In this document: positions 514 to 38,324 of the stretch, piece by piece
Layout of the letters: each line of letters opens with the position of its first letter
How positions within the stretch are numbered: position 1 is the stretch's first letter
DNA from: a virus
Strand: one strand, 5' to 3'
DNA length: 38,324 bases
IMG/VR virus record: IMGVR_UViG_3300047496_000311
The notes under the pieces: generated by a model
Database searches by the model: none
What the model saw: only the letters and a program-made list of their open reading frames with translations
Told to the model about the DNA's origin: nothing
Position numbers and translations under genes: made by a program

Positions 514-1620
514 ATGCAAGCAAAACAAGAAATTATTCCCCCATCCATAGATGCGAGAGAATACTTTCAGTCTTGTTTTTGGCGTGAGCGCGAAGCATGG
601 GAAGTCATGAATGAATTCTCCAGACGCGGCGCCAAAGTTCGTTTCAGTCAAGAATACATCGCTAAAAGAGTGGGAACCAATCGCACCACTATCAATCGTT
701 GGTTTAAGAAATGGAAAGAGCATGGTTTCATCACCAGTACGTATCGCCATATGCGCCCTTGTCACTATGAAGTGAACCCCTGGTTCTCCTTACCTGAAGT
801 TACCTCTTCGTACCGTCATGTTTTCCGTGCCTTTAAGGTATGTGCCTTCTGGTTAGTAGTAGGCTGCTATGCAGCAAAAACCGGTGAGAATACACAAATA
901 AATATAAAGAAATATCATGTATTACATGGTAGTTCAAAAGACAGTATAGAAAATAAAAGATTGCCTCTAGATACAGCCATCTCTTACGAGCTGGCTTCCA
1001 CCGAATTCACCCAAAAAGAGAAGATAGCGCTCTCTGCATTCCCTGACGAAGTCATCCGGAAAGCGTTAGCTCGCTACCATTCGGTTAGACCTAAGATCCG
1101 GGAACCAATCAAGTATGTATTCAAGCTATGCTGGGATATTGCAAATAAGTCTGGTTTGTATCCGGACTGGGTTTGGAAAAACAAGCTCCTCAGCATGGAA
1201 GACACCATGTTCCAAGAACCATTCCCCTTGAAGTCGTACATTGGCAAGGACAAGTCTGGAGATTGGATTCGTAAGAAAGAAACCCCCCCACTTCCGGTCG
1301 CCCCCCCAGCGGACCCTGCAGATAAGTATGCAAAGTTCCCACCAGAGTTAAGGGAAAGATTACACGCCGCTGACGCTAAAAGGGCTGCCATGGCTGCAAA
1401 GCCTACGATCACTGTAGTTAAAAAACCTGAGCCAGTCAGAGAACCTGTGGTCATTAAGTCCTCTGAACCTGTGGATACTGATATAAACGCGTTTACCCCT
1501 ACTCTGTTTAAGGGATGGAGTATGCCGAAGACGCAGTATGAAAGAAACCAAGAAAGCTTGGCCCAATTGTATAAAGAAATGGACATCGCCAGAGCACGAG
1601 AGAGAAAGAATGAAGCATAG
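514..1620 (+). CDS. winged-helix/HTH DNA-binding protein, possible replication initiator
   Basis: 368-aa ORF. N-terminal FSQEYIAKRVGTNRTTINRWFKKWKEHGFI is HTH-like. Pro-rich linker (PPLPVAPPADP), basic C-terminus. First gene after the rightward promoter and next to rusA. Confidence 0.4.
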   Translation: MQAKQEIIPPSIDAREYFQSCFWREREAWEVMNEFSRRGAKVRFSQEYIAKRVGTNRTTINRWFKKWKEHGFITSTYRHMRPCHYEVNPWFSLPEVTSSYRHVFRAFKVCAFWLVVGCYAAKTGENTQINIKKYHVLHGSSKDSIENKRLPLDTAISYELASTEFTQKEKIALSAFPDEVIRKALARYHSVRPKIREPIKYVFKLCWDIANKSGLYPDWVWKNKLLSMEDTMFQEPFPLKSYIGKDKSGDWIRKKETPPLPVAPPADPADKYAKFPPELRERLHAADAKRAAMAAKPTITVVKKPEPVREPVVIKSSEPVDTDINAFTPTLFKGWSMPKTQYERNQESLAQLYKEMDIARARERKNEA

Positions 1621-2014
1621 TTATTGTATTCCGGGAAAACCTATTCCCTGGCAAAGGCCTAAGGTAGGTAGATTTGGTAAATCCTATGATCCTCAAAAAG
1701 AGGTCAAGGAGGAAGTGGGATGGATTATTAAACACCAGCATGGAAGATTACCCCTTTTTAAAGGTTCTCTTTCATTAGAAATAGTTTTTTATATGCCTAT
1801 CCCTGAATCATGGTCTACGGTAAAAAAACAAAAGTTTAATGCACATTATCACATCTCTCGCCCTGATTTTTCAAATATGCTAAAGTTTTACGAAGATGTT
1901 TGTCAGGGTATCCTATATCACGACGACTGTCTTATCGCCACGGTGACTGGTTCTAAGATATACGATCCAGAGCCAAGAACCGTGATAACTATAAAGGAGA
2001 TAGACAATGAGTGA
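1610..2014 (+). CDS. rusA: RusA-family Holliday junction resolvase
   Basis: Internal ATG at 1610 overlaps the upstream stop. MKHSYCIPGKPIPWQRPK...LEIVFYMPIPESW...HISRPDFSNMLKFYEDVCQGILYHDDCLI matches the RusA pattern (GKP..k.R, PD.DN..K...D.L....y.DD). Confidence 0.8.
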   Translation: MKHSYCIPGKPIPWQRPKVGRFGKSYDPQKEVKEEVGWIIKHQHGRLPLFKGSLSLEIVFYMPIPESWSTVKKQKFNAHYHISRPDFSNMLKFYEDVCQGILYHDDCLIATVTGSKIYDPEPRTVITIKEIDNE

Positions 2015-5462: not shown

Positions 5463-5802
5463 AAAAAGCGAAATAGAAAAATACTTTGCTTATAAGAATG
5501 AACAAAGGGTTTTTTTTGACAACCTGTTTGGTTGTGTCATCAGTATTTGTCTATACGTTGCATTTTTTATTCTAATTTCTTCATTGTTGAGTCGTTTGAC
5601 AAGAAGATTGTTTAGGGCTCATTTTCAGGAAGCAGAAAAGAAAAGAAAAGCGGAAGAGCAGGCACGTGAATACGCACCCTATATAGAGCATTGGCGTAAA
5701 ATAGATGAACACATAGCCAAATTAAGTGAAAATAACAACAAAGAGACAAGTGAGAGTGATGATAGTAAAATTGTTGAGTCGTTTGACAAGAAGATTATTT
5801 AG
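5443..5802 (+). CDS. membrane-anchored coiled-coil protein (copy 1 of a tandemly duplicated module)
   Basis: ATG at 5443 within track ORF 5368..5802; start uncertain. TM segment LFGCVISICLYVAFFILISSLL, then LSRLTRRLFRAHFQEAEKKRKAEEQARE. Confidence 0.45.
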   Translation: MTCHPTEKSEIEKYFAYKNEQRVFFDNLFGCVISICLYVAFFILISSLLSRLTRRLFRAHFQEAEKKRKAEEQAREYAPYIEHWRKIDEHIAKLSENNNKETSESDDSKIVESFDKKII

Positions 5803-5994
5803 GACTTATTTTGAGGCAGCAGAAAAGAAAAGAAGAGCGGAAGAGCAAGCGCGTGAAGAAGAGCAAGCATATGAAGAAGAGAAAGCACGTGTTCACGCAG
5901 AATACTTAGAGAATTGGCGTAGAATAAATGAACATCTAGCTGAATTACGTGAAAATAACAACAAAGAGACAAGTCAGAGTGATGAGAGTAAAAA
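5584..5994 (+). repeat. tandem duplication: copy 1 at 5584..5770 (187 nt), copy 2 at 5771..5994 (224 nt with a ~37-nt insertion)
   Basis: Both copies start ttgttgagtcgtttgacaagaagatt and end gaaaataacaacaaagagacaagt[g/c]agagtgatga[t/g]agtaaaa. That end segment carries an RBS and ATG for the next ORF. Confidence 0.85.
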
Positions 5995-6001
5995 TGAATA
6001 A
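5759..6001 (+). CDS. coiled-coil protein (copy 2 of the duplicated module)
   Basis: ATG at 5759 after gagag. MIVKLLSRLTRRLFRTYFEAAEKKRRAEEQAREEEQ...NNNKETSQSDESKNE parallels copy 1 but is in a different frame from ORF 5443..5802. Confidence 0.4.
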   Translation: MIVKLLSRLTRRLFRTYFEAAEKKRRAEEQAREEEQAYEEEKARVHAEYLENWRRINEHLAELRENNNKETSQSDESKNE

Positions 6002-6542
6002 TCAAAGTGATTTTATAGATATATATGAATCTCGGCTTCGCAACGCGTATCTATGTGGATTTTTAGATGAATACGTGGAAGGATTGGTGACGTTGAATGG
6101 ATTGACGCGAGAAATTGTGGATCAGATAGTGATCAATCTTTATTCGCGCTACTCAAAGTGTGCGCACCCCGTCCCCTGTAAGTTACATCAAAAAAATAAG
6201 ATAATAGGTATGGGGACCATTGCCTTTTGTAATACACGCACATTGGATTATGTTCGTAAATGCCGCGGATTTATACCAATTGATAGGTATCCTAGGTATC
6301 CTACCGATTCAAATTCCCATTACAATTCTGAGTATGGAGCAGTTGGTAATGCTAGGTTTATAGTTGGCAATTTTTGTCGATCCGTGGTGAATCAGGATAA
6401 GATAACAGATTATCTGTATTTTGTAGCAGTCCCACAATGTGGTTGTGAAGGCCATCCTTGGTTTAGGCCCATAGATATTAAACCTGTTTGTATCTCGAGT
6501 AAATTAGCCACTTCAAATCCACCATCGACTATTGATTGGTAA
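5982..6542 (+). CDS. Cys-rich hypothetical protein
   Basis: Start at 5982 or 5994 (MNNQSDF...). About 185 aa with about 11 Cys. No motif recognised. Confidence 0.5.
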   Translation: MRVKMNNQSDFIDIYESRLRNAYLCGFLDEYVEGLVTLNGLTREIVDQIVINLYSRYSKCAHPVPCKLHQKNKIIGMGTIAFCNTRTLDYVRKCRGFIPIDRYPRYPTDSNSHYNSEYGAVGNARFIVGNFCRSVVNQDKITDYLYFVAVPQCGCEGHPWFRPIDIKPVCISSKLATSNPPSTIDW

Positions 6543-9447: not shown

Positions 9448-11469
9448 ATGTTGTTTCCGGAACTTGGCCCTCAGTATTATGATGATAAACATAAGGCCAT
9501 TTTATCCCGCATGGAAGCGTTCTACGCAGAATCAATCACCATTAATCAGTCTTTTTGGGGGGAAGCAGACACCGATCTTCGCTTTGAGACGGGCGATCAA
9601 ACCGTCTGGACAGATTTATACGGTAATTTACCCGCAAATCGTCGACGCCAATTCAGCTTTAACCGTATCCGCCCTATTGTTAATATGGTTTCTGGTTATC
9701 AAAAACGTAATCGTAAATCAACGATTGTGGTTCCCGTGGAGAACGCAGACGCACAAACAGCGGACGAATTCACTAAAGTGTTAATGTGGATTAACAATCA
9801 AGAAAACGTGTTGGAAACTATTTCTGATGCTTTCCATGGCGCATTAGTCACTGGGATGAATTTGCTTCAGGTATGGGTTGATTACCGTTCCGATCCAATA
9901 TCGGGTAACATTAAGGTCGATCGATGCGCCTATAATAGCTTTCTTATAGATCCCTATTTCCGTAAGGCTGACCTCAGTGATTGTAATGGTATTTGGAAGC
10001 GCACTTTCTTAACCAAACGCGAATGTATCTCTCTGATGCCAGATAAAGCAGATGAGATAATTGGACTAATTGGCAATGATTCAGGTACTGGAAGGGATGG
10101 AAAATTTCAGTTTGCACCGGAATCGTATCACTATGGACACAAAAATTTATTAACGTACGACGAGTATTATTACCGAGACTTCAGACTTCAAAAGTTATTA
10201 GTGGACACCGAAACGGGTGAGACACAAGAATGGAAGATGCAGAATAATGAAGACGCCCTTAAGGCCTTTCTGAAGCAATATCCACAAATATCGGTCGTCG
10301 AGCAAGAAGTTCCAACTACCAATCTAGCTATCGTGATCCAGGGAAAAGTTATGTATCACGGCCCTAACCCCTTGGGCATTGATCAGTATCCCTTCATTCC
10401 GGTGTGGGCTTTTTATAATCCTGAGATGCCTTACTTCCCACAGCGGATCCAGGGGATAGTCCGAAATTTAAGGGATGCCCAATACTTGTATAATCGCCGT
10501 AAGATTATCGAATTAGATATCTTGGAGTCACAGGTAAACTCTGGGTTCAAATATAAAGAGAATGCGCTTATTAATCCCAATGATATATTCCTCTCTGGTC
10601 AGGGTCGCGGCATTGCTATTAAGGAAGAAGCCCAAATGACTGACGTTGAACAGATTATCGCTCCATCTATTCCACCATCAATGATTCAATTGTCTGAGAT
10701 ATTGGCGAAAGAAATTCAGCAAATATCGGGCGTAAACGAGGAATTACTCGGGAGCGCGATGGATGACAAAGCAGGTATCCTGAGTATGCTCCGTCAAGGT
10801 GCAGGTTTAACGACCCTACAAGGCCTATTTGATAACTTAGATAGGGCACAAAAACTTCTGGGTAAACTTATGATAGATTTAATACAAACGACGTTCACGC
10901 CAGGCAAAGTTATGAAGATTCTGGAAGCAGAACCATCTCCCCAATTTTACAATAAGGCATTTGGTAAATATGATGCCGTGGTTGAAGATGGTTTGAATAC
11001 CGGTACCCAAAAACAGATGCAGTTTGCTCAACTATTACAACTGCGTGAAGTGGGTGTTCAAATACCTGATGAGGTTCTGTTAGATGCGGCCACCGTTCAG
11101 GAAAAGAAAAAATTAGTAGAAGCGGTCCGTGCTAACCAACAACAAATGCAGCAGATACAGCAACAACAAGCACAAGTTCAAATGGAAGTACAACAAGCCC
11201 AGATTGAATTGTCTAAAGCGAGAGCGCAAGCTGACCAGGGCCTTGGTATGGAGCGCTTATCTCGTATCCAAGAGAACCAGGCGTTGGCGGTTGAACGAAG
11301 AGCTGCTGCTGAGAAAGACCATGATCTTGCGTTATTGAACTTAGTGAAGGCGTTAAAAGAAATTGATAGTGTTGATCTGGAACACGTAGAAAAATTACTT
11401 GCTCTTGAAGGGATAGCGAGCCAGAGAACGCGGGAGAACGTCGCAGTATCCCCAGAGCAAGTTAAATAA
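9448..11469 (+). CDS. portal protein
   Basis: 673 aa. Positioned between terminase and scaffold/capsid. Long C-terminal Q-rich coiled coil (QQQMQQIQQQQAQVQMEVQQAQIELSKARAQ), as in portal barrel extensions. RBS gggaga. Confidence 0.75.
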   Translation: MLFPELGPQYYDDKHKAILSRMEAFYAESITINQSFWGEADTDLRFETGDQTVWTDLYGNLPANRRRQFSFNRIRPIVNMVSGYQKRNRKSTIVVPVENADAQTADEFTKVLMWINNQENVLETISDAFHGALVTGMNLLQVWVDYRSDPISGNIKVDRCAYNSFLIDPYFRKADLSDCNGIWKRTFLTKRECISLMPDKADEIIGLIGNDSGTGRDGKFQFAPESYHYGHKNLLTYDEYYYRDFRLQKLLVDTETGETQEWKMQNNEDALKAFLKQYPQISVVEQEVPTTNLAIVIQGKVMYHGPNPLGIDQYPFIPVWAFYNPEMPYFPQRIQGIVRNLRDAQYLYNRRKIIELDILESQVNSGFKYKENALINPNDIFLSGQGRGIAIKEEAQMTDVEQIIAPSIPPSMIQLSEILAKEIQQISGVNEELLGSAMDDKAGILSMLRQGAGLTTLQGLFDNLDRAQKLLGKLMIDLIQTTFTPGKVMKILEAEPSPQFYNKAFGKYDAVVEDGLNTGTQKQMQFAQLLQLREVGVQIPDEVLLDAATVQEKKKLVEAVRANQQQMQQIQQQQAQVQMEVQQAQIELSKARAQADQGLGMERLSRIQENQALAVERRAAAEKDHDLALLNLVKALKEIDSVDLEHVEKLLALEGIASQRTRENVAVSPEQVK

Positions 11470-11480
11470 GGAGAGTTAGT

Positions 11481-11630
11481 ATGCCATTACCATCAATCGT
11501 TAAAGCCATCGGTGGTCTATTAAATGAACAAAATATCGAACAAGTGATTGATCTTGTTGAAAAACTTGTAGTGCTTGGGGAACAATTGGAAAATTCGATC
11601 TCTCAATCCAATGCCAACCCACCACAATAA
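11481..11630 (+). CDS. small hypothetical protein (49 aa)
   Basis: Below the ORF-track size cutoff. AAGGAG 7 nt upstream of the ATG at 11481. MPLPSIVKAIGGLLNEQNIEQVIDLVEKLVVLGEQLENSISQSNANPPQ. Confidence 0.5.
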   Translation: MPLPSIVKAIGGLLNEQNIEQVIDLVEKLVVLGEQLENSISQSNANPPQ

Positions 11631-11771
11631 ATCTTATTTTGCTTAAAGCCTCGGCAAATAAGACCAGTCTTCGCCTACAGACTAGGCGCAGGTAGTTAGA
11701 GGTATTTATTAACCTTGTTTGAAAGTGTGATATTTTGTCACGGGTTCAAGCAGTTTCTACAGGAGTCTGCT

Positions 11772-12041
11772 ATGGCAGAAAAAAAACGTTATTACGAAAG
11801 CTCAGAAAAGTACGCAGGAATGGAGTCTCGTCGGAAACAGGAAATGGAAGACGGCGGCATGATCAGTGAGGATCACAGCCAAGTTGCTAATCTTCCACAA
11901 GAAGTTATGTATAAACCGTATCCAAAAAACACTCATTATATGCCAGAAGATTTGGATGATACCATACGTGGTGTTGATCGTCAGATGAATGAGCTTGATG
12001 GTGCAAAAGCGGCACGTCATAACGTTCCGAAGAAAGTTTAA
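11772..12041 (+). CDS. hypothetical protein, paralogue A (RRKQE..MI.EDH..VANL motif)
   Basis: ATG at 11772 after aggag. MAEKKRYYESSEKYAGMESRRKQEMEDGGMISEDHSQVANLPQEVMYKPYP... Confidence 0.55.
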   Translation: MAEKKRYYESSEKYAGMESRRKQEMEDGGMISEDHSQVANLPQEVMYKPYPKNTHYMPEDLDDTIRGVDRQMNELDGAKAARHNVPKKV

Positions 12042-12102
12042 CTTTGCGGGGGTCTTAACGGCCCCTTCACTGCGTGACAAAATGTCACGACCTGGAGTTA
12101 CC

Positions 12103-12336
12103 ATGATTGATAAGGAAATGTTCGCTGAAGAGGCCCTACGGGTTTCCATGGCGATGAATAATGTAGATCCGAGAAGAAAACAAGAGTTGGCTGATGCCAA
12201 TATGATCCATGAGGACCACACTGATGTTGCTAATTTATCTCGTCGTTTTATCCATAGAACCTTCGACGCCAATGAATATCCAGAACGTCTTGCAATGTAT
12301 AACCAAAGCCAGCGCCGACGCAGTAGAGGTGTATAA
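12103..12336 (+). CDS. hypothetical protein, paralogue B
   Basis: ATG at 12103 after ggag. ...DPRRKQELADANMIHEDHTDVANLSRRF... shares its core motif with 11772..12041. Confidence 0.5.
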   Translation: MIDKEMFAEEALRVSMAMNNVDPRRKQELADANMIHEDHTDVANLSRRFIHRTFDANEYPERLAMYNQSQRRRSRGV

Positions 12337-12488
12337 TGCCAGCAATGCCCCGAGTGAAAGACAAGGCGACGAAGATAGCGTACCGGATTTTAGGTAAGCC
12401 ATTAAATCTTCAGCCAAATAAAGAAGACAAAAAGCAACGCAAGGTTCGTGAACGGTTATTGTTTGAAGAAACCTGGAGAGTTCGGTGA
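12336..12488 (+). CDS. small basic hypothetical protein (50 aa)
   Basis: Below the track cutoff. TAATG overlap with the upstream stop and GTGA overlap with the downstream start. MPAMPRVKDKATKIAYRILGKPLNLQPNKEDKKQRKVRERLLFEETWRVR. Confidence 0.4.
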   Translation: MPAMPRVKDKATKIAYRILGKPLNLQPNKEDKKQRKVRERLLFEETWRVR

Positions 12489-12814
12489 AGAAAAGCAGTG
12501 AGAAAAAAGTTACCGTCGCCAAAGGCGTCAAAGTTGCTCGCGGTGTGGAAGAAAAGATGCGCGAAAAGAAAGGCAGCTCTTCGGCAGGTAAGTATAAAGA
12601 TGTGGCACCCAAGGATTTTGCTGGTGGAGCTGGGGGTGCCTCTCGATACAGCTTTCCTATTCCTGATCTTGCTCATGCACGCAACGCTTTGGCGCGAGCA
12701 CATTTCGCTCCAGATCCAGAGGGAATTAAAGCAAAGGTCTATAAGTTATATCCAGAATTAAAAAAACGGAAGGAAAAGCGTGAAAAAAAAGAAAAAGGAT
12801 CAAAAAAAGCCTAA
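12485..12814 (+). CDS. hypothetical protein with FPIPD..HARNALAR motif
   Basis: GTG start. YSFPIPDLAHARNALARAHFAPDPE is a motif I recall from small proteins in phage head modules. Lys-rich tail. Confidence 0.5.
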   Translation: MKKSSEKKVTVAKGVKVARGVEEKMREKKGSSSAGKYKDVAPKDFAGGAGGASRYSFPIPDLAHARNALARAHFAPDPEGIKAKVYKLYPELKKRKEKREKKEKGSKKA

Positions 12815-12980
12815 GAAGGCGGTCCGTCAAGATAAAGTAAAGAAAGTAATGCATGAATTTAAGGAAGATGAACTGCATAGTGGCTCAAAAGAGGGCCCAA
12901 AAGTAACCAATCCTAAGCAAGCCGTTGCGATTGCTCTTTCTGAAGCACGCAAGGCTGGCAAAAAGAAGAAAAAGAAATAG
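12780..12980 (+). CDS. small Lys-rich protein with MHEFK..L.SGS...V....QAVAIALSEARK motif
   Basis: GTG at 12780; start uncertain. The motif resembles a widespread small conserved family (DUF6496-like, from memory). Confidence 0.45.
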   Translation: MKKKKKDQKKPKKAVRQDKVKKVMHEFKEDELHSGSKEGPKVTNPKQAVAIALSEARKAGKKKKKK

Positions 12981-13001
12981 TTTTTCCTATCATTACTCTC
13001 A

Positions 13002-13028
13002 GCCCCTGGATCATACTAGGGGTTTTTG
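13002..13028 (+). terminator. weak rho-independent terminator
   Basis: gcccct (13002..13007), loop, agggg (13018..13022), ttttt. Confidence 0.35.
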
Positions 13029-13071
13029 ACTAATGAGCATCTTTTTTGATATCCTGCCTGCAGGAGTAATG

Positions 13072-14702: not shown

Positions 14703-16283
14703 ATGTCAATTACGACTACTTCAACGCTACCAGCACCAGTACAGCAAAGCTTTAGCTATAAGCTGCTGTCGGTGCCGGTGCCTAATATGATCCATAAGAT
14801 CCCTGCTATGAAAAAGCAGATGCCTCGAAATGGTGGTACAACGTTGCGTATGAGAAGATATAATCCTTTAAATACAGCAATGGTTCCCCTTGGAAATAGT
14901 GGCATCACTCCTCCACCACAAAATTTAACTGCCGTGGATATTGACGCTCAGATCTCATTTTATGGGACTTACGTTCAAATTAACGAGCAAGTGACCTTGC
15001 AAAACCAAGATCCAGTTCTTAATGAATGTGCTGCACGTTTAGGTGTTTCTCTTCGTCAAACCGAAGACCAATTAACCTCAAATATGCTCGCATCTACTGC
15101 TTCATTTATCAACTGCGTTGGCGGTGTTAATGGCGACGTTCCGACAGAATTAACTCGTTCGGACGTTGATGAAGTGGTTCGTGCTCTTTTGGGCAATAAT
15201 GCTTACACCATCATGGATAACATTGAAGGTGATTTGAAATTCGGTACAGCGCCTAAAAAGAATGGGCGCTTTAAATCTTTTCTGATTGACTTAGAAGCCC
15301 TATGGGGTGATAAGGCGCAAGCAAGTTTATACTGTGCAGCGTGAACGACTAAGTGAAGAGACCTCGAAAGAGGATGCGATAGTCTGACCTCTATGGAAAC
15401 ATAGAGAGGGAGATCCGAAGAGGTTTCCCCGCCACGCAAGTGGTCATTAAAGTAACAGAATGGTTCGTGATGCTTACTTTGCATTATGTCATACCGATTT
15501 AACAGCAGATATGGATAATATTGCTGGTTTCATACAAAAGAACCAATATCCATCACCAATGAATGCACTGCGTTCAGAGTGGGGTTCTATTGGAAACCTT
15601 AGATTCTTAGTGTCTTCAATTGGCAGCGTTTTCCAAAATGCGTCCAACTTAGGTGCTAATATCTACAATATTTTCTGTGTTGGTATGGAGGCTAAAGTGT
15701 TAGGCCTCATAAAATTTTGGGTAATTGACTTGGAAACCGTAGTGGCTTCTAGCTAACCGGTGACAAGGGGCAAGCGCAAGCAGCCTGAACGACTAAACCC
15801 TGAGACCCAGAAATGGGATGTGATAGTCTGACCTGCATGGAAACATGCAGAGGGAGATCCGAAGAGGTTTCCCCGCCACGCAAGTGGTCATTAAAGTAAC
15901 AGAATTGTATGCATGTATAGAGCAAGATGGATATAGTGCTTCGTTCATAAACTAGATATGTGAACGTTAAATCTTGGGTAATTGACTTGGAACCCGTAGT
16001 GGCTTCTAGCTAACCGGTGACAAGGGGCAAGCGTGATTGCAGCCTGAACGACTAAACCCTGAGACCTCGAAAGAGGATGCGATAGTCTGACCTCTATGGA
16101 AACATAGAGAGGTGACCTGAAGTGGAAGCCCGCTCGCAAGAGTAGTAACACGTGTGATATAGACCGCCGATATATGATGGGCCATTGGCACTTAACGCAT
16201 CTGTAGGCTATAAAATGGCAGAGGTGCCTCGGATATGCAATGATTTATGGGTCCTAAATCTACGCTGCACCTTAGCAGTTTAA
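14703..16283 (+). CDS. major capsid protein (HK97-fold, N4 gp56-like pattern), four exons: join(14703..15254, 15463..15693, 15908..15948, 16157..16283) = 316 aa
   Basis: Exon 1 motifs: GGTTLRMRRYNPL...ITPPPQNLTAVDIDAQISFYGTYVQINEQV. The spliced junctions read GTAP|VRDAYFALCH, CVGMEA|YACIEQDGYSASF, then I-YRPPIYDGPLALNASVGYKMAEVPRICNDLWVLNLRCTLAV. Exon lengths 552+231+41+127 = 951 nt, in frame. Track ORFs 14703..15344 and 15460..15756 are exon plus intron read-through. Confidence 0.8.
15255..15462 (+). ncRNA. group I self-splicing intron 1 (208 nt, no ORF)
   Basis: P1: exon gcgccu (15249..15254) pairs with gggcgc (15264..15269), with a U.G pair at the splice site. P7 is gacta (15347..15351) with tagtc (15380..15384). 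P8 is CCTC-gaaa-GAGG (15362..15373). P9 is CTCTATG-gaaa-CATAGAG (15389..15406). CCAC-gcaa-GTGG hairpin. Terminal G at 15462. Possible P10: gaau (15260..15263) with exon 2 guuc. Confidence 0.8.
15694..15907 (+). ncRNA. group I self-splicing intron 2 (214 nt, no ORF)
   Basis: P1: exon gaggcu (15688..15693) pairs with ggccuc (15703..15708), U.G at the site. Same gaacgactaa ... gatagtctgacc core. P8 is CCCA-gaaa-TGGG and P9 is CTGCATG-gaaa-CATGCAG, both compensatory relative to intron 1. Terminal G at 15907. Confidence 0.8.
15949..16156 (+). ncRNA. group I self-splicing intron 3 (208 nt, no ORF; splits a codon)
   Basis: P1: exon cguucau (15942..15948) pairs with gugaacg (15960..15966), U.G at the site. 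Same core as introns 1 and 2. CTC-gcaa-GAG hairpin. Terminal G at 16156. Exon 3 ends AT and exon 4 starts A, giving an Ile codon and the only open downstream frame. Confidence 0.75.
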
Positions 16284-26352: not shown

Positions 26353-26646
26353 TCAGTCGTTTTCTTTAATAGTTATTTCAGGCTCAATTATTTCAGACTC
26401 AACTAACACAAGTTTGTATCCAATAGCATGTAATATACTTAATACAGTTCTAAATTGAGCATGGGATTGCTTCTTACTAAATATCTTATAAAGGCTTTCC
26501 CTTCCAAGAGAAGACCTTCTGGCTACTATGGGATATTTTTGTTTTCTTACTATTTTCTCAACATGTGAAAGAAATATCTCTGTATCTTTTTGGTTAATCG
26601 AATTATTAAGAGATTCTATATCAGTAAGGCTTTTTTCTATATTCAT
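26353..26646 (-). CDS. HigA-family 'addiction module antidote'-like HTH protein (no cognate toxin seen)
   Basis: 97 aa. ARRSSLGRESLYKIFSKKQSHAQFRTVLSILHAIGYKLVLV matches the antidote-family core (gl.ReSLYkaLs..gNP.f.Tvlkvl.alGl.L.v). Confidence 0.65.
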   Translation of the reverse strand: MNIEKSLTDIESLNNSINQKDTEIFLSHVEKIVRKQKYPIVARRSSLGRESLYKIFSKKQSHAQFRTVLSILHAIGYKLVLVESEIIEPEITIKEND

Positions 26647-26867
26647 AGTTTTTCTGACATTTTTGTTAATGTTTTAATAATATGGATATATTCGTCTGCT
26701 TCTATCTCATTTGTAATTATTCCTATAATGGTATCCGCTATAGAAATATTTAATAGATTGGCCACAGAGTAGAGGTGCCCCACAACGTGTTCTAGGGAGT
26801 TTGCTTGTATGCCTTCAATTTTTTCTTGAAGTTCATTGATTTTTTTTGTTAATTCTATGTTTTCCAT
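26643..26867 (-). CDS. helical hypothetical protein
   Basis: ATG at 26867 after aagga (MENIELTKKINELQEKIEG...). ATGA overlap with the downstream HigA-like gene. Not RelE/HigB-like. Confidence 0.45.
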   Translation of the reverse strand: MENIELTKKINELQEKIEGIQANSLEHVVGHLYSVANLLNISIADTIIGIITNEIEADEYIHIIKTLTKMSEKL

Positions 26868-26875
26868 TTTGTTCC

Positions 26876-27049
26876 TTATTCTTTTAATGTCTTGTCCTCT
26901 TCCAACATTCTCATCTTTATGGCTCTTAATATCCACGTATTCATACTAATGCCACGTCGAGCGGCACGCTGTTTTACTTCACTATGGATAGCTGCGTCAA
27001 AATTTAAGATCAACTTCTTACTTTGTTTATGGGCCGTTTCTTTTTCCAT
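26876..27049 (-). CDS. ribbon-helix-helix (Arc/CopG-like) DNA-binding protein
   Basis: ATG at 27049 after ggaga. KKLILNFDAAIHSEVKQRAARRGISMNTWILRAIKMRMLEE is a typical RHH pattern. First gene after the promoter at 27074..27103. Confidence 0.6.
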   Translation of the reverse strand: MEKETAHKQSKKLILNFDAAIHSEVKQRAARRGISMNTWILRAIKMRMLEEDKTLKE

Positions 27050-29417: not shown

Positions 29418-30179
29418 ATGTCATATAAAAGAATAAGTCCCATACCGGTTGCTGAAGGCGGCAGTGGTGCTCTAACCCTTACTGGCGTTCTCATAGGAAA
29501 TGGTACGTCTGCATTCACAGGGAATACGGTCACTCAGTACGACGTTTTAGTTGGGGGCGCATCAAATGCCATTTCTTCCATAGCGCCAAGTTCTACAAGT
29601 GGTGTGCCATTAATATCCCAGGGTTCTTCAAGTAATCCGGCTTTTGGTACCGCAGTTGTTGCTGGTGGTGGAACAGGTGTCACTAGTTTTAATGCTAATG
29701 GAGTGGTTATATCAAATACTACGACGACTGGCGCACTGGCTTCTCTCGCTTTAACTGATGGACAAGTGGTTATTGGTTCAAGTGTAGGGGCGCCCGCTGC
29801 AGCAACATTAACCGCTGGCGCTAATATCTCCATAACCAATGGCCATAATACGATAACGATTGCTGCTAGTTCTGGTGGTGAAACGGTAAATTACACCGCG
29901 GTTAACCATGCGGCAAGTCCCTATACTGTGCTGAGCACGGATTATTATATCGGGGTGGATGCAAGTGGTGGTGTTGTAAGTATATTGTTACCCAATGCTC
30001 CTTCTACAGGAAGAGTGGTTGTGGTGAAAGATAAAACAGCATCTGCCGCTACAAATAATATTACAGTTACCACTGTTGGTGGAGCAGTAAATATTGACGG
30101 TGCCACAAGCTTTGTGATGAATACTAATTATGAATCGGCTAACTTTATATTTAATGGCGTAAGCTATGAGGTGTGGTAA
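29418..30179 (+). CDS. tail fibre protein (N-module B + C-module X)
   Basis: 253 aa. N-terminus MSYKRISPIPVAEGGSGALTLTGVLIGNGTSAFTGN is shared with 30179..31057. C-terminus is shared with 28793..29404. Confidence 0.6.
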   Translation: MSYKRISPIPVAEGGSGALTLTGVLIGNGTSAFTGNTVTQYDVLVGGASNAISSIAPSSTSGVPLISQGSSSNPAFGTAVVAGGGTGVTSFNANGVVISNTTTTGALASLALTDGQVVIGSSVGAPAAATLTAGANISITNGHNTITIAASSGGETVNYTAVNHAASPYTVLSTDYYIGVDASGGVVSILLPNAPSTGRVVVVKDKTASAATNNITVTTVGGAVNIDGATSFVMNTNYESANFIFNGVSYEVW

Positions 30180-31057
30180 TGGCATATAAAAGAATAAGCC
30201 CCTCTCCAGTCGTTGAAGGGGGAACAGGAGCACAGACGTTAACTGGTGTGCTTATAGGAAATGGAACTTCAGCAGTCACTGGTAACGCCGTAACTCAGTA
30301 TAATACCCTTGTTGGTGGGGCGAGTAATGCTATTTCATCAATTGCACCATCCGCCACCTCAGGTGTTCCTTTGGTTTCTGGTGGATCATCCGCTAACCCA
30401 TCCTATGGTACGGCGGTCGTGGCTGGTGGTGGCACCGGTATTACAAGTGCTACGGCTTATGCGGTTCTTTGTGGTGGTACTACTTCTACAGGGGCATTGC
30501 AATCTATAGCCGGTTTGGGATCTTCGGGACAGGTATTAACTTCTAATGGAGCATCGGCATTACCAACCTTCCAAAGTGCTGCTGCAGGATCTTTAATCCT
30601 TATTTCTACTCAAACAGTAAGTGGTGTTGCAGCGGTGACATTCACTAGTGGAATATCGAGTACCTATAATAACTATCTATTACTCTGTACTAATGTGACA
30701 AATGCCTCAAGCACTCCCACTATGTGGATCCAGATATCAACTAATGGTGGTAGTAGTTATATTGCCACTGGTTATTTGACAAATACTAATATTGCAACCA
30801 ACGGTATAGCTATAGGTGATGTAAACAGCACCGCTTTCTTTAGGTCCATAAACACAAATATATACAATTTAACTTCGGGTTCCGGATACGTTTCAACTAA
30901 TTCAATAAGCGTAGGCGGCTCCTCAGGGGCTGGTACTACTCAATCTTATTATAGTTATTATGCTACTGCTTCCCAGACGGTTAATGCGATACAATTAGTA
31001 CTATCGAGCGGAACAAATTTTAGTGGCACATTTTCACTTTATGGGTACGCAAAATAG
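30179..31057 (+). CDS. tail fibre protein (N-module B + unique C-module Z)
   Basis: TAATG overlap start at 30179 (MAYKRISPSPVVEGGTGAQTLTGVLIGNGTSAVTGN). 292 aa. Confidence 0.6.
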   Translation: MAYKRISPSPVVEGGTGAQTLTGVLIGNGTSAVTGNAVTQYNTLVGGASNAISSIAPSATSGVPLVSGGSSANPSYGTAVVAGGGTGITSATAYAVLCGGTTSTGALQSIAGLGSSGQVLTSNGASALPTFQSAAAGSLILISTQTVSGVAAVTFTSGISSTYNNYLLLCTNVTNASSTPTMWIQISTNGGSSYIATGYLTNTNIATNGIAIGDVNSTAFFRSINTNIYNLTSGSGYVSTNSISVGGSSGAGTTQSYYSYYATASQTVNAIQLVLSSGTNFSGTFSLYGYAK

Positions 31058-31066
31058 GGAGAAGTA

Positions 31067-32260
31067 ATGGCTAAAAGATACCCCCAAAATAGATTGACTG
31101 GAGTTAACCCCCTGAGCTATATGGGGGTTAATCCCTCAACGCCCCCTGACAGTGCGATTTATGGTTATGATCCAACCACCAATGATACCCAGTTTATTAT
31201 TGGTACTTTATGGATAAATCCCGTTGATGTAACGATATGGATGTTAACGGGCGTCAGTGATGCGATAGCAAATTGGGTTCAATTATATCCCGGCGGTGGT
31301 GCTGGTGCCACTGATTTTCCCACTAACTCTGGTACGGCAGTAGAGAGTGGTGGCGTTTTAAATATGCTGGGTGCGAACGTTATAGCCACTTCAGGAGCAA
31401 GCCATACCGTGACAGTGGCCCTCAGTAATGGTACCAATGGTCAAACACTGATTGGTGGCGGTTCATCACCGGTATGGGCTAATATTACGTCTAATGCAAG
31501 CACGATAACCATAACCAATGGTGCCAACAGCATCGATTTATCGGTTACCTCAGAGGCGGTAGATCAATTTGTTACCGATTCCGGAACTGCGGTTCCCGTC
31601 GGTGGGCATATTAACATACTGGGAACTAATCTGGTAACCACTTCCGGAAGCGGCCATACCGTTACGGTAGGCCTGACTGAAGGAACCAATGGTCAGCTAC
31701 CCATAGCAGCTACCGGTGGCAATGTTGCGTACGCAAATATCACTAGTCATGATGGCTCGGTAACTATTACTAATGGTGCTAATACCATTGACTTATCGGT
31801 GGGTGGTGGTGGTTCTTCGACCTCTAATTTCTTGTATTATCAAGCGACCAATTCATCTGCCCTTAGTGCGGGAACCTATTATCTGGGAGCGATAGTGGCA
31901 TTAACGAAGGTATTTGACGCAGGAAACAACGTTTCTCCGGGGAATGGTAGTGGTACAGCTGCGGTGTTTACTGCTCCCACAAAAGGAGTATATCTTCTTG
32001 GTGGTGCAGTGGCAAACGTGGTAGCCGGTTCTCCTGCTAGTATGCAGATGAATATCCAAACGTCACAGGGAGACTTTCCTTTATCTATGGGTAATACCTC
32101 TTTTAATAACGTTGATGAGCGCATCATCATTGAATTAAATCAAAACGATACGGTAATGTGGTCGTTTAACTGGAGTATTGGAGGCGCTACGCAAACCGTG
32201 GAAGGGGGATCTGTTCCGTATCTTACCTATATTTATGGTTATTTAGTTATGTCCACTTAG
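31067..32260 (+). CDS. tail fibre / receptor-binding protein with C1q/TNF-like C-terminal domain (paralogue 1)
   Basis: 397 aa. Two ~80-aa internal repeats (TNSGTAVESGGVLNMLGANVIATSGASHTVTV...ITNGANSIDLSV). C-terminus FLYYQATN...NGSGTAAVFTAPTKGVYLLGG...LNQNDTVMW...YLTYIYGYLV. Confidence 0.6.
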   Translation: MAKRYPQNRLTGVNPLSYMGVNPSTPPDSAIYGYDPTTNDTQFIIGTLWINPVDVTIWMLTGVSDAIANWVQLYPGGGAGATDFPTNSGTAVESGGVLNMLGANVIATSGASHTVTVALSNGTNGQTLIGGGSSPVWANITSNASTITITNGANSIDLSVTSEAVDQFVTDSGTAVPVGGHINILGTNLVTTSGSGHTVTVGLTEGTNGQLPIAATGGNVAYANITSHDGSVTITNGANTIDLSVGGGGSSTSNFLYYQATNSSALSAGTYYLGAIVALTKVFDAGNNVSPGNGSGTAAVFTAPTKGVYLLGGAVANVVAGSPASMQMNIQTSQGDFPLSMGNTSFNNVDERIIIELNQNDTVMWSFNWSIGGATQTVEGGSVPYLTYIYGYLVMST

Positions 32261-32268
32261 GGAGTCTC

Positions 32269-33450
32269 ATGGCGAAGAAATATCAGCAAAATTATCTCAG
32301 TAATCAACCCCTTGCATATATGGGCGTAGAGCCAAGCTCTCCACTCGATACCACGGTCCAGCGACGTGCACCGACCGTACGTGATACAGGGTTTGCCATT
32401 GGCACTTTTTGGTTACAACCCACTGGCATTGGTGTATGGATGTTGGTTAATATATCTCAGGGATCGGCAGTATGGGTTCCCTTGTATCCAAATAGTGGCG
32501 CGGGGGCCAGCTCTTTTCCCACTAACTCGGGAACAGCGACATCGTTAAATGGTGTCTTAAATATGCTTGGATCCAACGTTGTTACCACTTCTGGTGCGGG
32601 AAATACCGTGTCGATATCATTAGTGAATGGTACCAATGGTCAAATATTAATCGGTGGTGGTTCCAATCCCGCTTGGGAAAACATAACCTCCAACGATGGC
32701 AGCGTATCTATAACCAATGGTCCCAATAGTATTAATCTAGAGGTAAGCGCAGCGGGAGTTAATACCGTCGGTACTAACTCGGGAACCGCAACCGCATCAG
32801 GCAATTCCATTACGTTATCGGGTGCAAATATATTAACCACTTCAGCAAGTGGTAATACAGTGACGGTGGCATTCCGTGAGTCCACCAATGGTAAGGTTCC
32901 CATAGCAGCAACATCTGGTGCCACGGCGTATGCAAATATCACTTCTTTGGACTCCAGTCTGACGATAACCAATGGTCCCAACAGCATCGATATTATTGTC
33001 ACTGGTGGTGGCGGTGGTGGTTCTAAGCCAAACTTCTTCTATTATCAGGCGAGTAATTCACCGTCGTTGACACCGGGAATATATTTCTTGGGTACGTATG
33101 AAGCGTTAACTAAGGTAATAGACACTGGTAATAATGTGTATCCTGGTGATGGGTCGGGGACGGCTGCATCTTTTACTGCCCCTGTGGACGGTGTTTATTT
33201 AATTGGAGGGGGAGTTAACTCGCTTACCAATATCCAGCTTGAATTCTTTTTGGTAACAACATCAAGTGCTTTCGGTATTTATCAGGGAACGACCACATCA
33301 AGCGCTGGTATTGCGGGAGCGGTATTAGTGAACTTAAGTGCAAGTGACACCGTTAAGTGGGAGGCTATTACCGGTCTTTCTGGAATTATAAATGGCGGAA
33401 CACAGCCATATTATACATGGATATATGGTTATTTGGTTGCTCAGACATAG
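32269..33450 (+). CDS. tail fibre / receptor-binding protein with C1q/TNF-like C-terminal domain (paralogue 2)
   Basis: 393 aa. Same architecture. C-terminus FFYYQASN...DGSGTAASFTAPVDGVYLIGG...LSASDTVKW...YYTWIYGYLV. Confidence 0.6.
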   Translation: MAKKYQQNYLSNQPLAYMGVEPSSPLDTTVQRRAPTVRDTGFAIGTFWLQPTGIGVWMLVNISQGSAVWVPLYPNSGAGASSFPTNSGTATSLNGVLNMLGSNVVTTSGAGNTVSISLVNGTNGQILIGGGSNPAWENITSNDGSVSITNGPNSINLEVSAAGVNTVGTNSGTATASGNSITLSGANILTTSASGNTVTVAFRESTNGKVPIAATSGATAYANITSLDSSLTITNGPNSIDIIVTGGGGGGSKPNFFYYQASNSPSLTPGIYFLGTYEALTKVIDTGNNVYPGDGSGTAASFTAPVDGVYLIGGGVNSLTNIQLEFFLVTTSSAFGIYQGTTTSSAGIAGAVLVNLSASDTVKWEAITGLSGIINGGTQPYYTWIYGYLVAQT

Positions 33451-33458
33451 GGAGAGAC

Positions 33459-34751
33459 ATGGTATCATCAGTAAATAGAAGAGTCGCATCGGCGAATGCG
33501 CTCAGTTATATGGGAGTTAATCCCGCAACGCCACCAAATTTAGTTACGTACACATTTGCACCAGCCACCGATGACACGAATGCTCCCCTAGGGACTTTGT
33601 GGTTGGTTATTGATCCCACTAACCCAAGTCCCCCTACCCCACAAATATGGTTATTGGGAAACGTTGTTGGCTTTACGGCAACGTGGGTTGAACTTTATCC
33701 CGGCTCCGGATCTGGTGTGAATCAAATCGTCACCAATATGGGCACCGCTATCGAATCTATGGGCGCCATCAATATATTTGGCGTCAATGTTATAACCACC
33801 ACCGGCTCGGGCAACACCGTTACCATTGAAATGACCGATGGCACCGATGGCCAACTATTGATTGGTGGTGGCACCGAACCGCAGTGGGCGAATTTAACTT
33901 CAACGGGGGGAACGGTAACCATTAGCACAGGAGCCAATACCCTTAATATTGAGGCCACCGTAAGTGGTAACATCCATGACATAGTGACCGACAGCGGGAC
34001 AGCCACTGAGTCCAACAATATTATCAATATTCTTGGTGGTACTCTGATTAATACATCAGCAAGTGGTAATACGATAACGATTGCCATGGACAATGGCTTA
34101 AATGGACAGGTTCCCATAGCTGCCACGAGTGCCGCCACGGCGTATGCAAATCTAATGAGCCATGACGGATCTGTTTTTATAACCAATGGTCCCAATAGTA
34201 TAGATCTATCCGTGCAGGCATCAACCAAGAGCGGATTCTTTTATTATCAGGCAACCGATTACGTGGTTACTTATGGTACACAGACCACGTTCTATTTGGG
34301 CGCTTCAAAAATATTAACCAAGCTGTTTGATGTCAATAATGACGTCTATCCCGGGAATGGTACCTATAACTTCACCAACTATCCACCACCATCACCAATG
34401 CCCAATAGCTTTCCGGGAAGAGCTTATTTCACTGCTCCTGTCACGGGTACCTATATGTTTGGCACCGGTATACTCACGAATAATGGGAATCTTTTGGCAG
34501 CCCCGGCAATAGGTATAGGAACCTCCGAGATTGCAACTCAGTTTTATGCACTCTTTATTTTCCAGCCGCCAACGGGGCCACAGTTAACTATTTCCAATAG
34601 AGCTGAGACACTCATCAGTTTGACTAAAGGCCAGCAGGTATGGGTGGGAACACGGGTAGTAACGCGAGGCGGAGCTTCAACAGTCTATGGAGGATCTGGT
34701 AGTCCCAACTATGTTACGTATTTTTGGGGATTCCTTGTGTATCAATCATAA
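33459..34751 (+). CDS. tail fibre / receptor-binding protein with C1q/TNF-like C-terminal domain (paralogue 3)
   Basis: ATG at 33459 after gggaga. 430 aa. C-terminus FFYYQATD...GRAYFTAPVTGTYMFGTG...LTKGQQVWV...YVTYFWGFLV. Confidence 0.6.
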   Translation: MVSSVNRRVASANALSYMGVNPATPPNLVTYTFAPATDDTNAPLGTLWLVIDPTNPSPPTPQIWLLGNVVGFTATWVELYPGSGSGVNQIVTNMGTAIESMGAINIFGVNVITTTGSGNTVTIEMTDGTDGQLLIGGGTEPQWANLTSTGGTVTISTGANTLNIEATVSGNIHDIVTDSGTATESNNIINILGGTLINTSASGNTITIAMDNGLNGQVPIAATSAATAYANLMSHDGSVFITNGPNSIDLSVQASTKSGFFYYQATDYVVTYGTQTTFYLGASKILTKLFDVNNDVYPGNGTYNFTNYPPPSPMPNSFPGRAYFTAPVTGTYMFGTGILTNNGNLLAAPAIGIGTSEIATQFYALFIFQPPTGPQLTISNRAETLISLTKGQQVWVGTRVVTRGGASTVYGGSGSPNYVTYFWGFLVYQS

Positions 34752-37643: not shown

Positions 37644-38198
37644 TCACTTACTCGCGTAGTCCAGAACCTCACTAAATTTACTCCATGGCATCTCCTCAAG
37701 CCGTGAAATATTTAATCTTTTTAAGATTGCTAACTCTTTTTCCTTATTGTTTTGCAGTTTGAATCGAAGCAATCCAGCCTGTTTATCTGAGATGGTATTA
37801 CTCTTTGACGCTACTTCTCCATCATTATCAGCTTCGTCATCCTCTGCCGCTAATCCCAACAGCAACATAATGTGATACCGAGAATGATAGGTGCATGAAC
37901 CACCAAATGCCTGGTCATTACTTTGTGGATTATCTGCCGGAGTCAATGTAGAGACTGATGAGATGTACTGACCAGTCTCAATGTGAACGACGATGGTCTT
38001 TAACGCTTGTTTTTCACCAATGTGACACAACTCCTGGAAAAATTTTAATCCGTGCTTAGAAGTCATTTTTGACACGGTTTCAATTATCTGGGATCGAGAG
38101 GCGTAGGTACTTTTATGGCCCTTGGAGTCTTTCCGTATGATAACCCCAAACTCCTTGTGCATGGCATCAAGAGCTGCCATTATTTTATTTAGTTCCAT
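37644..38198 (-). CDS. erf: Erf-family single-strand annealing (recombination) protein
   Basis: Start taken at the ATG at 38198 (MELNK...) after gggaga. KSTYASRSQIIETVSKMTSKHGL...VVHIETGQYIS...QAFGGSCTYHSRYHIMLLLGLAAEDDEADNDG matches the ERF pattern (kY.Ya.l..i...v...l.khGl; GSa.TY.rRY.l...lGi..eDDD). Confidence 0.75.
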   Translation of the reverse strand: MELNKIMAALDAMHKEFGVIIRKDSKGHKSTYASRSQIIETVSKMTSKHGLKFFQELCHIGEKQALKTIVVHIETGQYISSVSTLTPADNPQSNDQAFGGSCTYHSRYHIMLLLGLAAEDDEADNDGEVASKSNTISDKQAGLLRFKLQNNKEKELAILKRLNISRLEEMPWSKFSEVLDYASK

Positions 38199-38324
38199 AA
38201 TTATCTCCCAGTAAATCATAATGGTCTTTCAGAAAGTTTATAATCTTAAACATAGAATAATGGTGCGGCTTGGTCTGGCCACAAATAAAGCGTCTCAGTG
38301 TATTGATATTGATATTGATGTTCC
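38185..38324 (-). CDS. 3' portion of the junction-spanning HTH gene (second representation of 1..127 plus the last 13 nt with the stop)
   Basis: The reading frame from 236 continues through the repeat and ends ...GDNYGTK-TAA at 38187..38185, overlapping the erf start. Confidence 0.6.
   Translation of the reverse strand, partial: NINININTLRRFICGQTKPHHYSMFKIINFLKDHYDLLGDNYGTK
38198..38324. repeat. terminal direct repeat, identical to 1..127
   Basis: See the feature at 1..127. Confidence 0.95.

Follow-up and report, generated by a model that had tools for sequence, protein, structure and literature searches.

How do three introns of one gene, each guided to its own exon, come to share a different part of their bodies with each of the others? 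The question is raised by IMG/VR virus record IMGVR_UViG_3300047496_000311, a stretch of 38,324 nucleotides (nt; hereafter the window) in which a capsid gene at 14703–16283, with a product of the N4-gp56 type, reads as split by three compact group I introns devoid of open reading frames (ORFs). An earlier note on this DNA had described the introns as mosaics of one another and attributed the pattern to recent intragenic spread followed by recombination or gene conversion between the copies. We find that the mosaic is real and that it was probably produced by ectopic gene conversion between co-resident introns, a reading in which we infer the splicing activity, the recombination mechanism and the direction of transfer from sequence.

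The reconstruction of the host gene fixes the intron boundaries. Excision of 15255–15462, 15694–15907 and 15949–16156 leaves a 951-nt ORF made of four exons, all on the plus strand, which encodes a protein of 316 amino acids. Exon 1 (14703–15254, amino acids 1–184) ends in GCGCCU at the 5' splice site and exon 2 (15463–15693, amino acids 185–261) ends in GAGGCU. The third is a micro-exon of 41 nt (15908–15948) encoding YACIEQDGYSASF plus the first two nt of an isoleucine codon, which exon 4 (16157–16283) completes before continuing with YRPPIYDGPL and on to the stop. The micro-exon peptide is invariant among homologues, and the reading frame closes only with the boundaries 15908 and 15948. The spliced product is 84–91% identical, at 99–100% coverage, to more than 100 uninterrupted proteins of 313–317 amino acids, several of them being labelled N4-gp56 family major capsid protein, and its alignment with these intronless homologues contains no insertion or deletion at any junction (KFGTAP/VRDAYF, CVGMEA/YACIEQ and SASF(I)/YRPP). 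The 80 best relatives of the capsid protein in IMG/VR (82–90% amino acid identity) are all intronless. The phage has no cultured relative, the best capsid match by tblastn having 26% identity, and megablast and blastn searches of 50,697 phage records with the gene or with intron 2 gave no match.

The intervening elements are best identified as group I introns, on the strength of their P1 guides, their terminal guanosines, the exact restoration of the exons on their removal and covarying helices from P3 to P9. All three start after a U that pairs with a G of the guide, within a P1 of 6–7 base pairs. In intron 1 (15255–15462, 208 nt) the guide GGGCGC (15264–15269) pairs with the exon sequence GCGCCU, leaving a U·G pair at the splice site, and the terminal G lies at 15462. 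The guide of intron 2 (15694–15907, 214 nt) is GGCCUC (15703–15708), which pairs with GAGGCU, and the terminal G is at 15907; that of intron 3 (15949–16156, 208 nt) is GUGAACG (15960–15966), which pairs with CGUUCAU, and the terminal G is at 16156. The assignment in the earlier note of three group I introns, with each guide fitted to its own exon, is thus upheld. Four-base-pair P10 pairings with the 3' exon can also be read in introns 1 and 3. P7 (GACUA/UAGUC) is present in all three introns and, being invariant, is supported by sequence alone.

Minimum free energy (MFE) folds recovered P4–P5, P6, P8 and P9 together with a pair of 3' hairpins, several of these elements being closed by GNRA-type loops; the fold of intron 1, for example, forms hairpins P4–P6, P8, P9, P9.1 and P9.2. 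Z-scores of the MFE folds range from -2.2 to -3.1. The three introns lack P2 and P7.1/P7.2: only 6 nt separate the guide from P3, and P3' follows directly after P7 (GACUAA/GUGAAGAGA). P2 and a P7.1/P7.2 extension between P7 and P3' are features of the IA2 architecture. In E-value mode the Rfam group I model RF00028 matches all three introns (25.8, 25.2 and 23.9 bits in order, the third having a divergent 3' tail) and nothing else in the window, with E-values of 3.5e-4 (intron 1) to 1.3e-3 on 1.3 kilobases (kb). With a P1 containing the U·G pair, guanosine bound at P7 and a terminal G marking the 3' splice site, the three introns are predicted to self-splice from the messenger RNA. None of them, at 208–214 nt, contains an ORF, and no domain of the HNH, GIY-YIG, LAGLIDADG or reverse-transcriptase type was found in 40 ORFs of the window. 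No homing endonuclease, whether intron-encoded or free-standing, was thus detected, in keeping with the earlier note.

A wider family of related introns provides a comparative frame. More than 120 contigs of IMG/VR contain the core motif, and in about 45 of 120 fetched loci the homologous capsid gene lies in pieces. A covariance model built from the three window introns found 99 further matches in 44 related capsid loci, a type of count that overestimates the number of introns, just as a strict count of the P7' motif underestimates it. On the family alignment, which covers about 100 relatives, 90.2% of cells are paired, compared with 35–48% when the partners are slid by one to three columns, and in 37 of 38 pairs both partners have changed. 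The exons carry a signal of their own. GCGCCT at site 1 (window 15249–15254) is found in 10 of 10 intron-bearing alleles and in only a few (at least 3) of 73 intronless ones, and GAGGCT at site 2 (window 15688–15693) in 5 of 5 intron-bearing and 4 of 76 intronless alleles; the intronless alleles were taken from our loci L128–L207, and the P1 exon positions compared included 15942–15948.

Against this background, what is shared among the three window introns differs from pair to pair. Introns 2 and 3 have a 5' domain in common, the region of intron 2 from P3 through P4, P5, P5a and P6 to P7 and P3' (15717–15807, plus strand) being equal to 15974–16066 in intron 3 except for one mismatch and the L6 loop. 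Its first part, 15717–15776 against 15974–16033, agrees at 59 of 60 nt with the sole mismatch at 15736, and after a difference of 3 against 5 nt in loop L6 the match resumes as an exact 28-mer (15780–15807 and 16039–16066). Introns 1 and 3 share the core from P8 through J8/7 and P7' to P9 (15358–15409 and 16061–16112, 52/52), and introns 1 and 2 share the P9.1–P9.2 3' tail (15405–15461 and 15849–15905, 57/57); both are maximal exact matches. All three blocks had been reported in the earlier note and were recovered with the same boundaries. Introns 2 and 3 each begin 23–25 nt upstream of their common 5' domain, and these nucleotides contain their own P1 loop and guide.

The blocks, which are 98–100% identical, adjoin segments that are only 58–62% identical, and the tail of intron 3 is only about 58–60% identical to those of the other two. 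In the core block intron 2 differs from introns 1 and 3 at nine positions, eight of which make up four compensated base pairs in P8 and P9, so that the compensated stems noticed previously are present together with one further base change. Since P8, P9 and the tail helices vary freely with compensation in the family, the identity seen here is not imposed by function. Further, when the three introns were aligned downstream of the guide region, the 56 informative sites fell into 6 runs in the order 2=3, 1=3, 1=2, and none of 100,000 permutations gave so few runs (p<1e-5). The sharing is therefore non-transitive, as had been proposed, and far beyond chance, and its mutually incompatible contiguous zones require recombination or gene conversion.

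A pattern of identical blocks could in principle be created during assembly, by chimeric joining or by collapse of strain variants, and the record does derive from a short-read metagenome in which k=31 contigs break inside the repeat. Two Logan contigs, assembled independently from other runs (L122 and L123, from ERR9963788 and ERR9963794), are identical to the window and both end at 15387, 30 nt into the 52-nt repeat. Logan assemblies use k=31, and the break is what a genuine repeat of at least 31 nt produces by stopping a k=31 graph. A mis-join would skip or reorder exons, whereas the four exons are complete and colinear and each guide fits its own exon; the repeats (up to 60 nt) are also shorter than typical reads. 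In addition, more than one sample and more than one assembler yielded the same sequence: three samples have the contig on record, and ORFs that read through from exon into intron recur in 16 and 11 index blocks, including contigs of 10–50 kb. We consider an artefact very improbable.

Import from outside has also to be weighed against exchange inside the gene. Module shuffling does occur population-wide: the P5a extension of introns 2 and 3 is also found in the site-1 introns of L040, L214 and L212, and exact blocks of 50–61 nt are common to introns at different sites in different contigs. Each of the three blocks might accordingly have been acquired separately, by recombination with co-infecting relatives. 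However, among the 102 related intron matches exact blocks of at least 50 nt occur in 0.1% of 5,045 between-locus pairs, compared with two of the three window pairs. The longest exact blocks within the window measure 57, 52 and 40 nt, and in external loci the best match to a block reaches 90–96% over partial length, with none above 96%, compared with 98–100% inside the gene. Import would also require one gene to have received a given donor module on two occasions, whereas exchange within the gene needs one internal copy event. Separate import thus seems to us a poor explanation of the locus, with a small though not negligible chance of being correct.

Ectopic conversion between the resident introns is the account that we favour. 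Three originally distinct introns would have swapped parts of their ribozyme bodies in this lineage, through non-reciprocal homologous recombination (ectopic gene conversion or copy-choice) in the course of replication, between copies lying 200–450 nt apart. In the most economical directions, the 52-nt core would have passed from intron 1 to intron 3, the 57-nt tail from intron 1 to intron 2, and the 5' domain of roughly 90 nt would have been exchanged between introns 2 and 3. The phage's own recombination functions probably helped. These are an ERF-family single-strand annealing protein (37644–38219, minus strand; Pfam PF04404, E 5.8e-16), a candidate catalyst of short-homology recombination, and a RusA Holliday-junction resolvase (1538–2014, plus strand; Pfam PF05866, E 7.4e-25), whose role here is likewise putative.

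Selection may have filtered the outcome. Conversion tracts that cover the guide, or only one strand of a helix, would abolish splicing, and only body swaps that leave P1 intact would survive. Crossovers between the direct repeats would remove essential capsid exons and hence be lethal. If so, the persistence of the repeats needs neither positive selection nor a very recent origin, and we do not follow the earlier note in taking it as a sign of one or the other.

The age of the insertions bears on whether the introns are recent copies of one another. Introns at exactly site 1 are present in nine IMG/VR contigs (L040, L208–L215), with the same guide and nearly the same P1 loop as intron 1, and introns at exactly site 2 in four (L052, L216–L218), again with the same guide and nearly the same P1 loop (AAAGUGUUAGG) as intron 2. 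Flanking exon stretches of these same-site loci show about 71–79% DNA identity to the window, a rough figure as the stretches may contain further introns; the identities for exon 1 are unreliable because upstream stretches in other loci do contain further introns, and those for exon 2 are possibly affected likewise. The presence of same-site introns in diverged phages implies that the insertions at sites 1 and 2 predate this genome. For the junction and tail of intron 3 no counterpart was found in IMG/VR or JGI metagenome contigs, and this intron is a possible lineage-specific insertion. Five candidate counterparts (L219, L221–L224) proved to be chance matches in unrelated sequence.

It could nevertheless be proposed that one intron was recently copied to the other two sites, by reverse splicing and reverse transcription or by ectopic DNA insertion, with divergence and recombination of the copies afterwards. 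With 88% identity over P3–P9, introns 2 and 3 rank second in similarity among all pairs of the 102 family matches, and no other pair from within one gene comes near the top of the list. Those bodies of the family that are most alike (up to 89% over P3–P9) usually lie at different sites in different contigs, so that bodies do move between sites, and for site 3 no counterpart was found in IMG/VR or JGI metagenomes. Recent copying is difficult to reconcile, however, with the occurrence, in phages whose compared exon stretches differ by about 20–30% in DNA, of site-1 and site-2 introns that have the guides and P1 loops seen here, or with the low similarity of the intron 3 tail to the others. The guides differ at 3–5 positions, and reverse splicing into the other sites would have needed prior retargeting; nor was a reverse transcriptase found in the 40 ORFs. 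On balance we regard recent transposition as unlikely, if somewhat less so than separate import. The recent spread envisaged in the earlier note is not supported at sites 1 and 2, and could still hold for intron 3.

Under the conversion account, comparison with same-site relatives gives some indication of which intron was donor and which recipient. Intron 1 and its closest same-site relative (L215) are 79% identical in the 5' domain, 94% in the core and 88% in the tail, and the P8 type common to introns 1 and 3 is the type found in the site-1 relatives of intron 1. Intron 2, by comparison, is 65–78% identical to its site-2 relatives in every segment, and its tail is 98% identical to that of intron 1 and 87–90% to those of site-1 relatives; the tail type common to introns 1 and 2 matches site-1 relatives at 85–90% and site-2 relatives at 70–78%. 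On the most parsimonious history introns 1 and 2 would be old residents, intron 2 having received its tail, and intron 3 its core, from intron 1. The 5' domain common to introns 2 and 3 is, by the same comparison, foreign to site 2, and might have come from any donor. Same-site relatives carry different modules, the exon stretches compared differing by about 20–30%, and a near-identical strain in the pre-conversion state was not found.

Several points weigh against this account. The RF00028 scores (23.9–25.8 bits) lie under the curated gathering threshold of 50, the introns being without peripheral elements that the model expects, and at gathering thresholds Rfam returned no match anywhere in the window. 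The covariation counts rest on an alignment fitted to our own covariance model; the synonymous exon positions at sites 1 and 2, which covary with intron presence, support P1 independently of that alignment. What intron 2 has in common with its site-2 relatives is confined to the P1 loop and P6, and does not extend to P3–P5, the core or the tail; this would fit an independent insertion at site 2 as well as a near-complete overwriting of an old resident. For the direction of transfer the evidence comes from no more than a handful of relatives at the same sites. Finally, recombination with co-infecting relatives outside the sample is not strictly distinguishable from conversion within the genome.

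The window may also be viewed as one member of a larger set. Intron-bearing alleles of the capsid gene in IMG/VR (L001–L120) have roughly 20 or more insertion positions, the positions being approximate. Examples of such loci include L054 (5375–7941), in which the gene contains up to about 1.6 kb of intron sequence, L069 (4632–7018), L038 and L040. Some of the insertion positions lie close to those of the window: an intron is found 9 nt upstream of site 1 in L084, L087, L069 and L082, and 3 nt upstream of site 3 in L052. Targeted literature searches found no paper describing this mini-intron family, which is large and apparently undescribed. We put forward, tentatively and as something we would not yet bet on, that a proliferating swarm of endonuclease-less mini-introns inhabits the capsid gene of this clade, reaching new codons by means of new guides on interchangeable bodies, and that the mosaic in the window is a snapshot of it. 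If true, this would provide evidence from nature that group I introns transpose and are retargeted without an endonuclease, something that to our knowledge has never been shown directly.

Some of the related introns carry small ORFs in loop L6 (56–122 amino acids, several of them Cys-rich, e.g. MIQICKLDDYNICEH...CPVC). Examples are found in the site-1 introns of L208–L212 and at 5711–6100 and 6117–6487 of L069. The ORFs begin just after GGGGCAAG, and in several the frame stays open into the ribozyme core until it reaches the UGA of GUCUGA. Pfam gave no match, and 5.8 billion proteins yielded only five homologues; the products might act as tiny nucleases or maturases, or might be hitch-hiking cargo. 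An intron with an L6 ORF matches the covariance model twice, as in L069, and a figure of up to 7–8 introns per gene obtained from such matches was rejected.

Elsewhere the window encodes DnaB, a CHC2 primase-type zinc-finger protein and a P22-like portal. Between the portal and the scaffold-like genes, 11469–13033 contains only short, partly overlapping ORFs (108, 115 and 109 amino acids), for which there was no Pfam match and, in this interval, no match to the intron model. A protein of 97 amino acids encoded at 26353–26646 (minus strand) matches PF21716, a probable addiction-module antidote (E 1.3e-11), and an upstream ORF, also of 97 amino acids (26643–26936, minus strand), could be its partner. 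Judged by their translations, tandem paralogous tail-fibre-like genes with similar N-termini (...YKRISP..V.EGG.GA.TLTGVLIGNGTS; MAK.Y.QN....NPL.YMGV.P) occupy 29418–34751.

How group I introns lacking an endonuclease spread and persist has been asked for a long time, reverse splicing not being known to have been demonstrated in nature. This locus with its roughly 100 relatives offers a compact natural system in which to approach it, with introns of about 200 nt in an essential and highly expressed gene, many insertion sites, site-specific guides and exchangeable bodies. The mosaic may be regarded as a natural domain-swap experiment, which would indicate that P3–P6, P8–P9 and the P9.1–P9.2 tail are freely recombinable. 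There is also a practical consequence, in that sub-threshold Rfam scores, together with capsid fragments called as separate small ORFs, distort phage annotation and marker-gene surveys.

The closest known parallel is the tail tube gene orf142 of Staphylococcus phage Twort (Landthaler & Shub 1999), for which later papers describe three group I introns, high similarity between the IA2 introns 2 and 3, and demonstrated exon skipping (PMC10136302, PMC11878797). In both cases a late structural gene of a phage harbours three small group I introns, the second and third being separated by a micro-exon of 41 nt here and, according to the same papers, 23 nt in Twort. The model built from the window introns recovers each of the Twort introns (E 4e-5 to 4e-4), chiefly by way of J8/7, P7' and P9. 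In the Twort sequence itself (L225, NC_007021, 16600–17550) the three introns have an exact P7'–P9 block in common, and introns 2 and 3 are 97% identical over a 3' block of 79 nt. The similarity in Twort is essentially tree-like, introns 2 and 3 being close and intron 1 distant, whereas in the window each pair shares a different block. The window introns also differ in being about 50 nt shorter, without P2 and P7.1/P7.2, and they lie in the capsid gene of an uncultivated, podovirus-like phage unrelated to Twort.

Other phages, too, have capsid genes interrupted by between one and four group I introns, among them Zeta-group crAss-like phages, which have intron-rich capsid genes (Yutin et al. 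2021, PMC7886860), and cluster J mycobacteriophages, with introns in capsid and tail genes (PMC3706429). The crAss introns are long and were recognised through their endonuclease ORFs, whereas those of the window are about 200 nt and ORF-less, and a reticulate relation between co-resident introns, as seen here, is not reported for either group.

Gene-conversion mosaics of group I introns are themselves not new. The omega introns of the yeast mitochondrial 21S ribosomal RNA gene are such mosaics, including exchange between endonuclease-containing and endonuclease-lacking forms (Wu & Hao 2014, PMC4059233). That exchange is allelic, between introns at the same site in different strains or species, whereas the exchange proposed here is ectopic, involving three sites of one gene with the guides excluded. 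In ribosomal DNA, too, a gene may hold related introns at several positions without a homing endonuclease, and spread by reverse splicing or ectopic insertion has been proposed there, according to the review of Hausner et al. (2014, PMC3984707) without direct experimental support. In the window, by contrast, each copy has a guide of its own and the insertions at sites 1 and 2 are old, and the similarity is for these reasons better explained by later conversion than by recent transposition. What is new here in comparison with these systems is the ectopic, reticulate exchange among three ORF-less mini-introns of a single phage gene.

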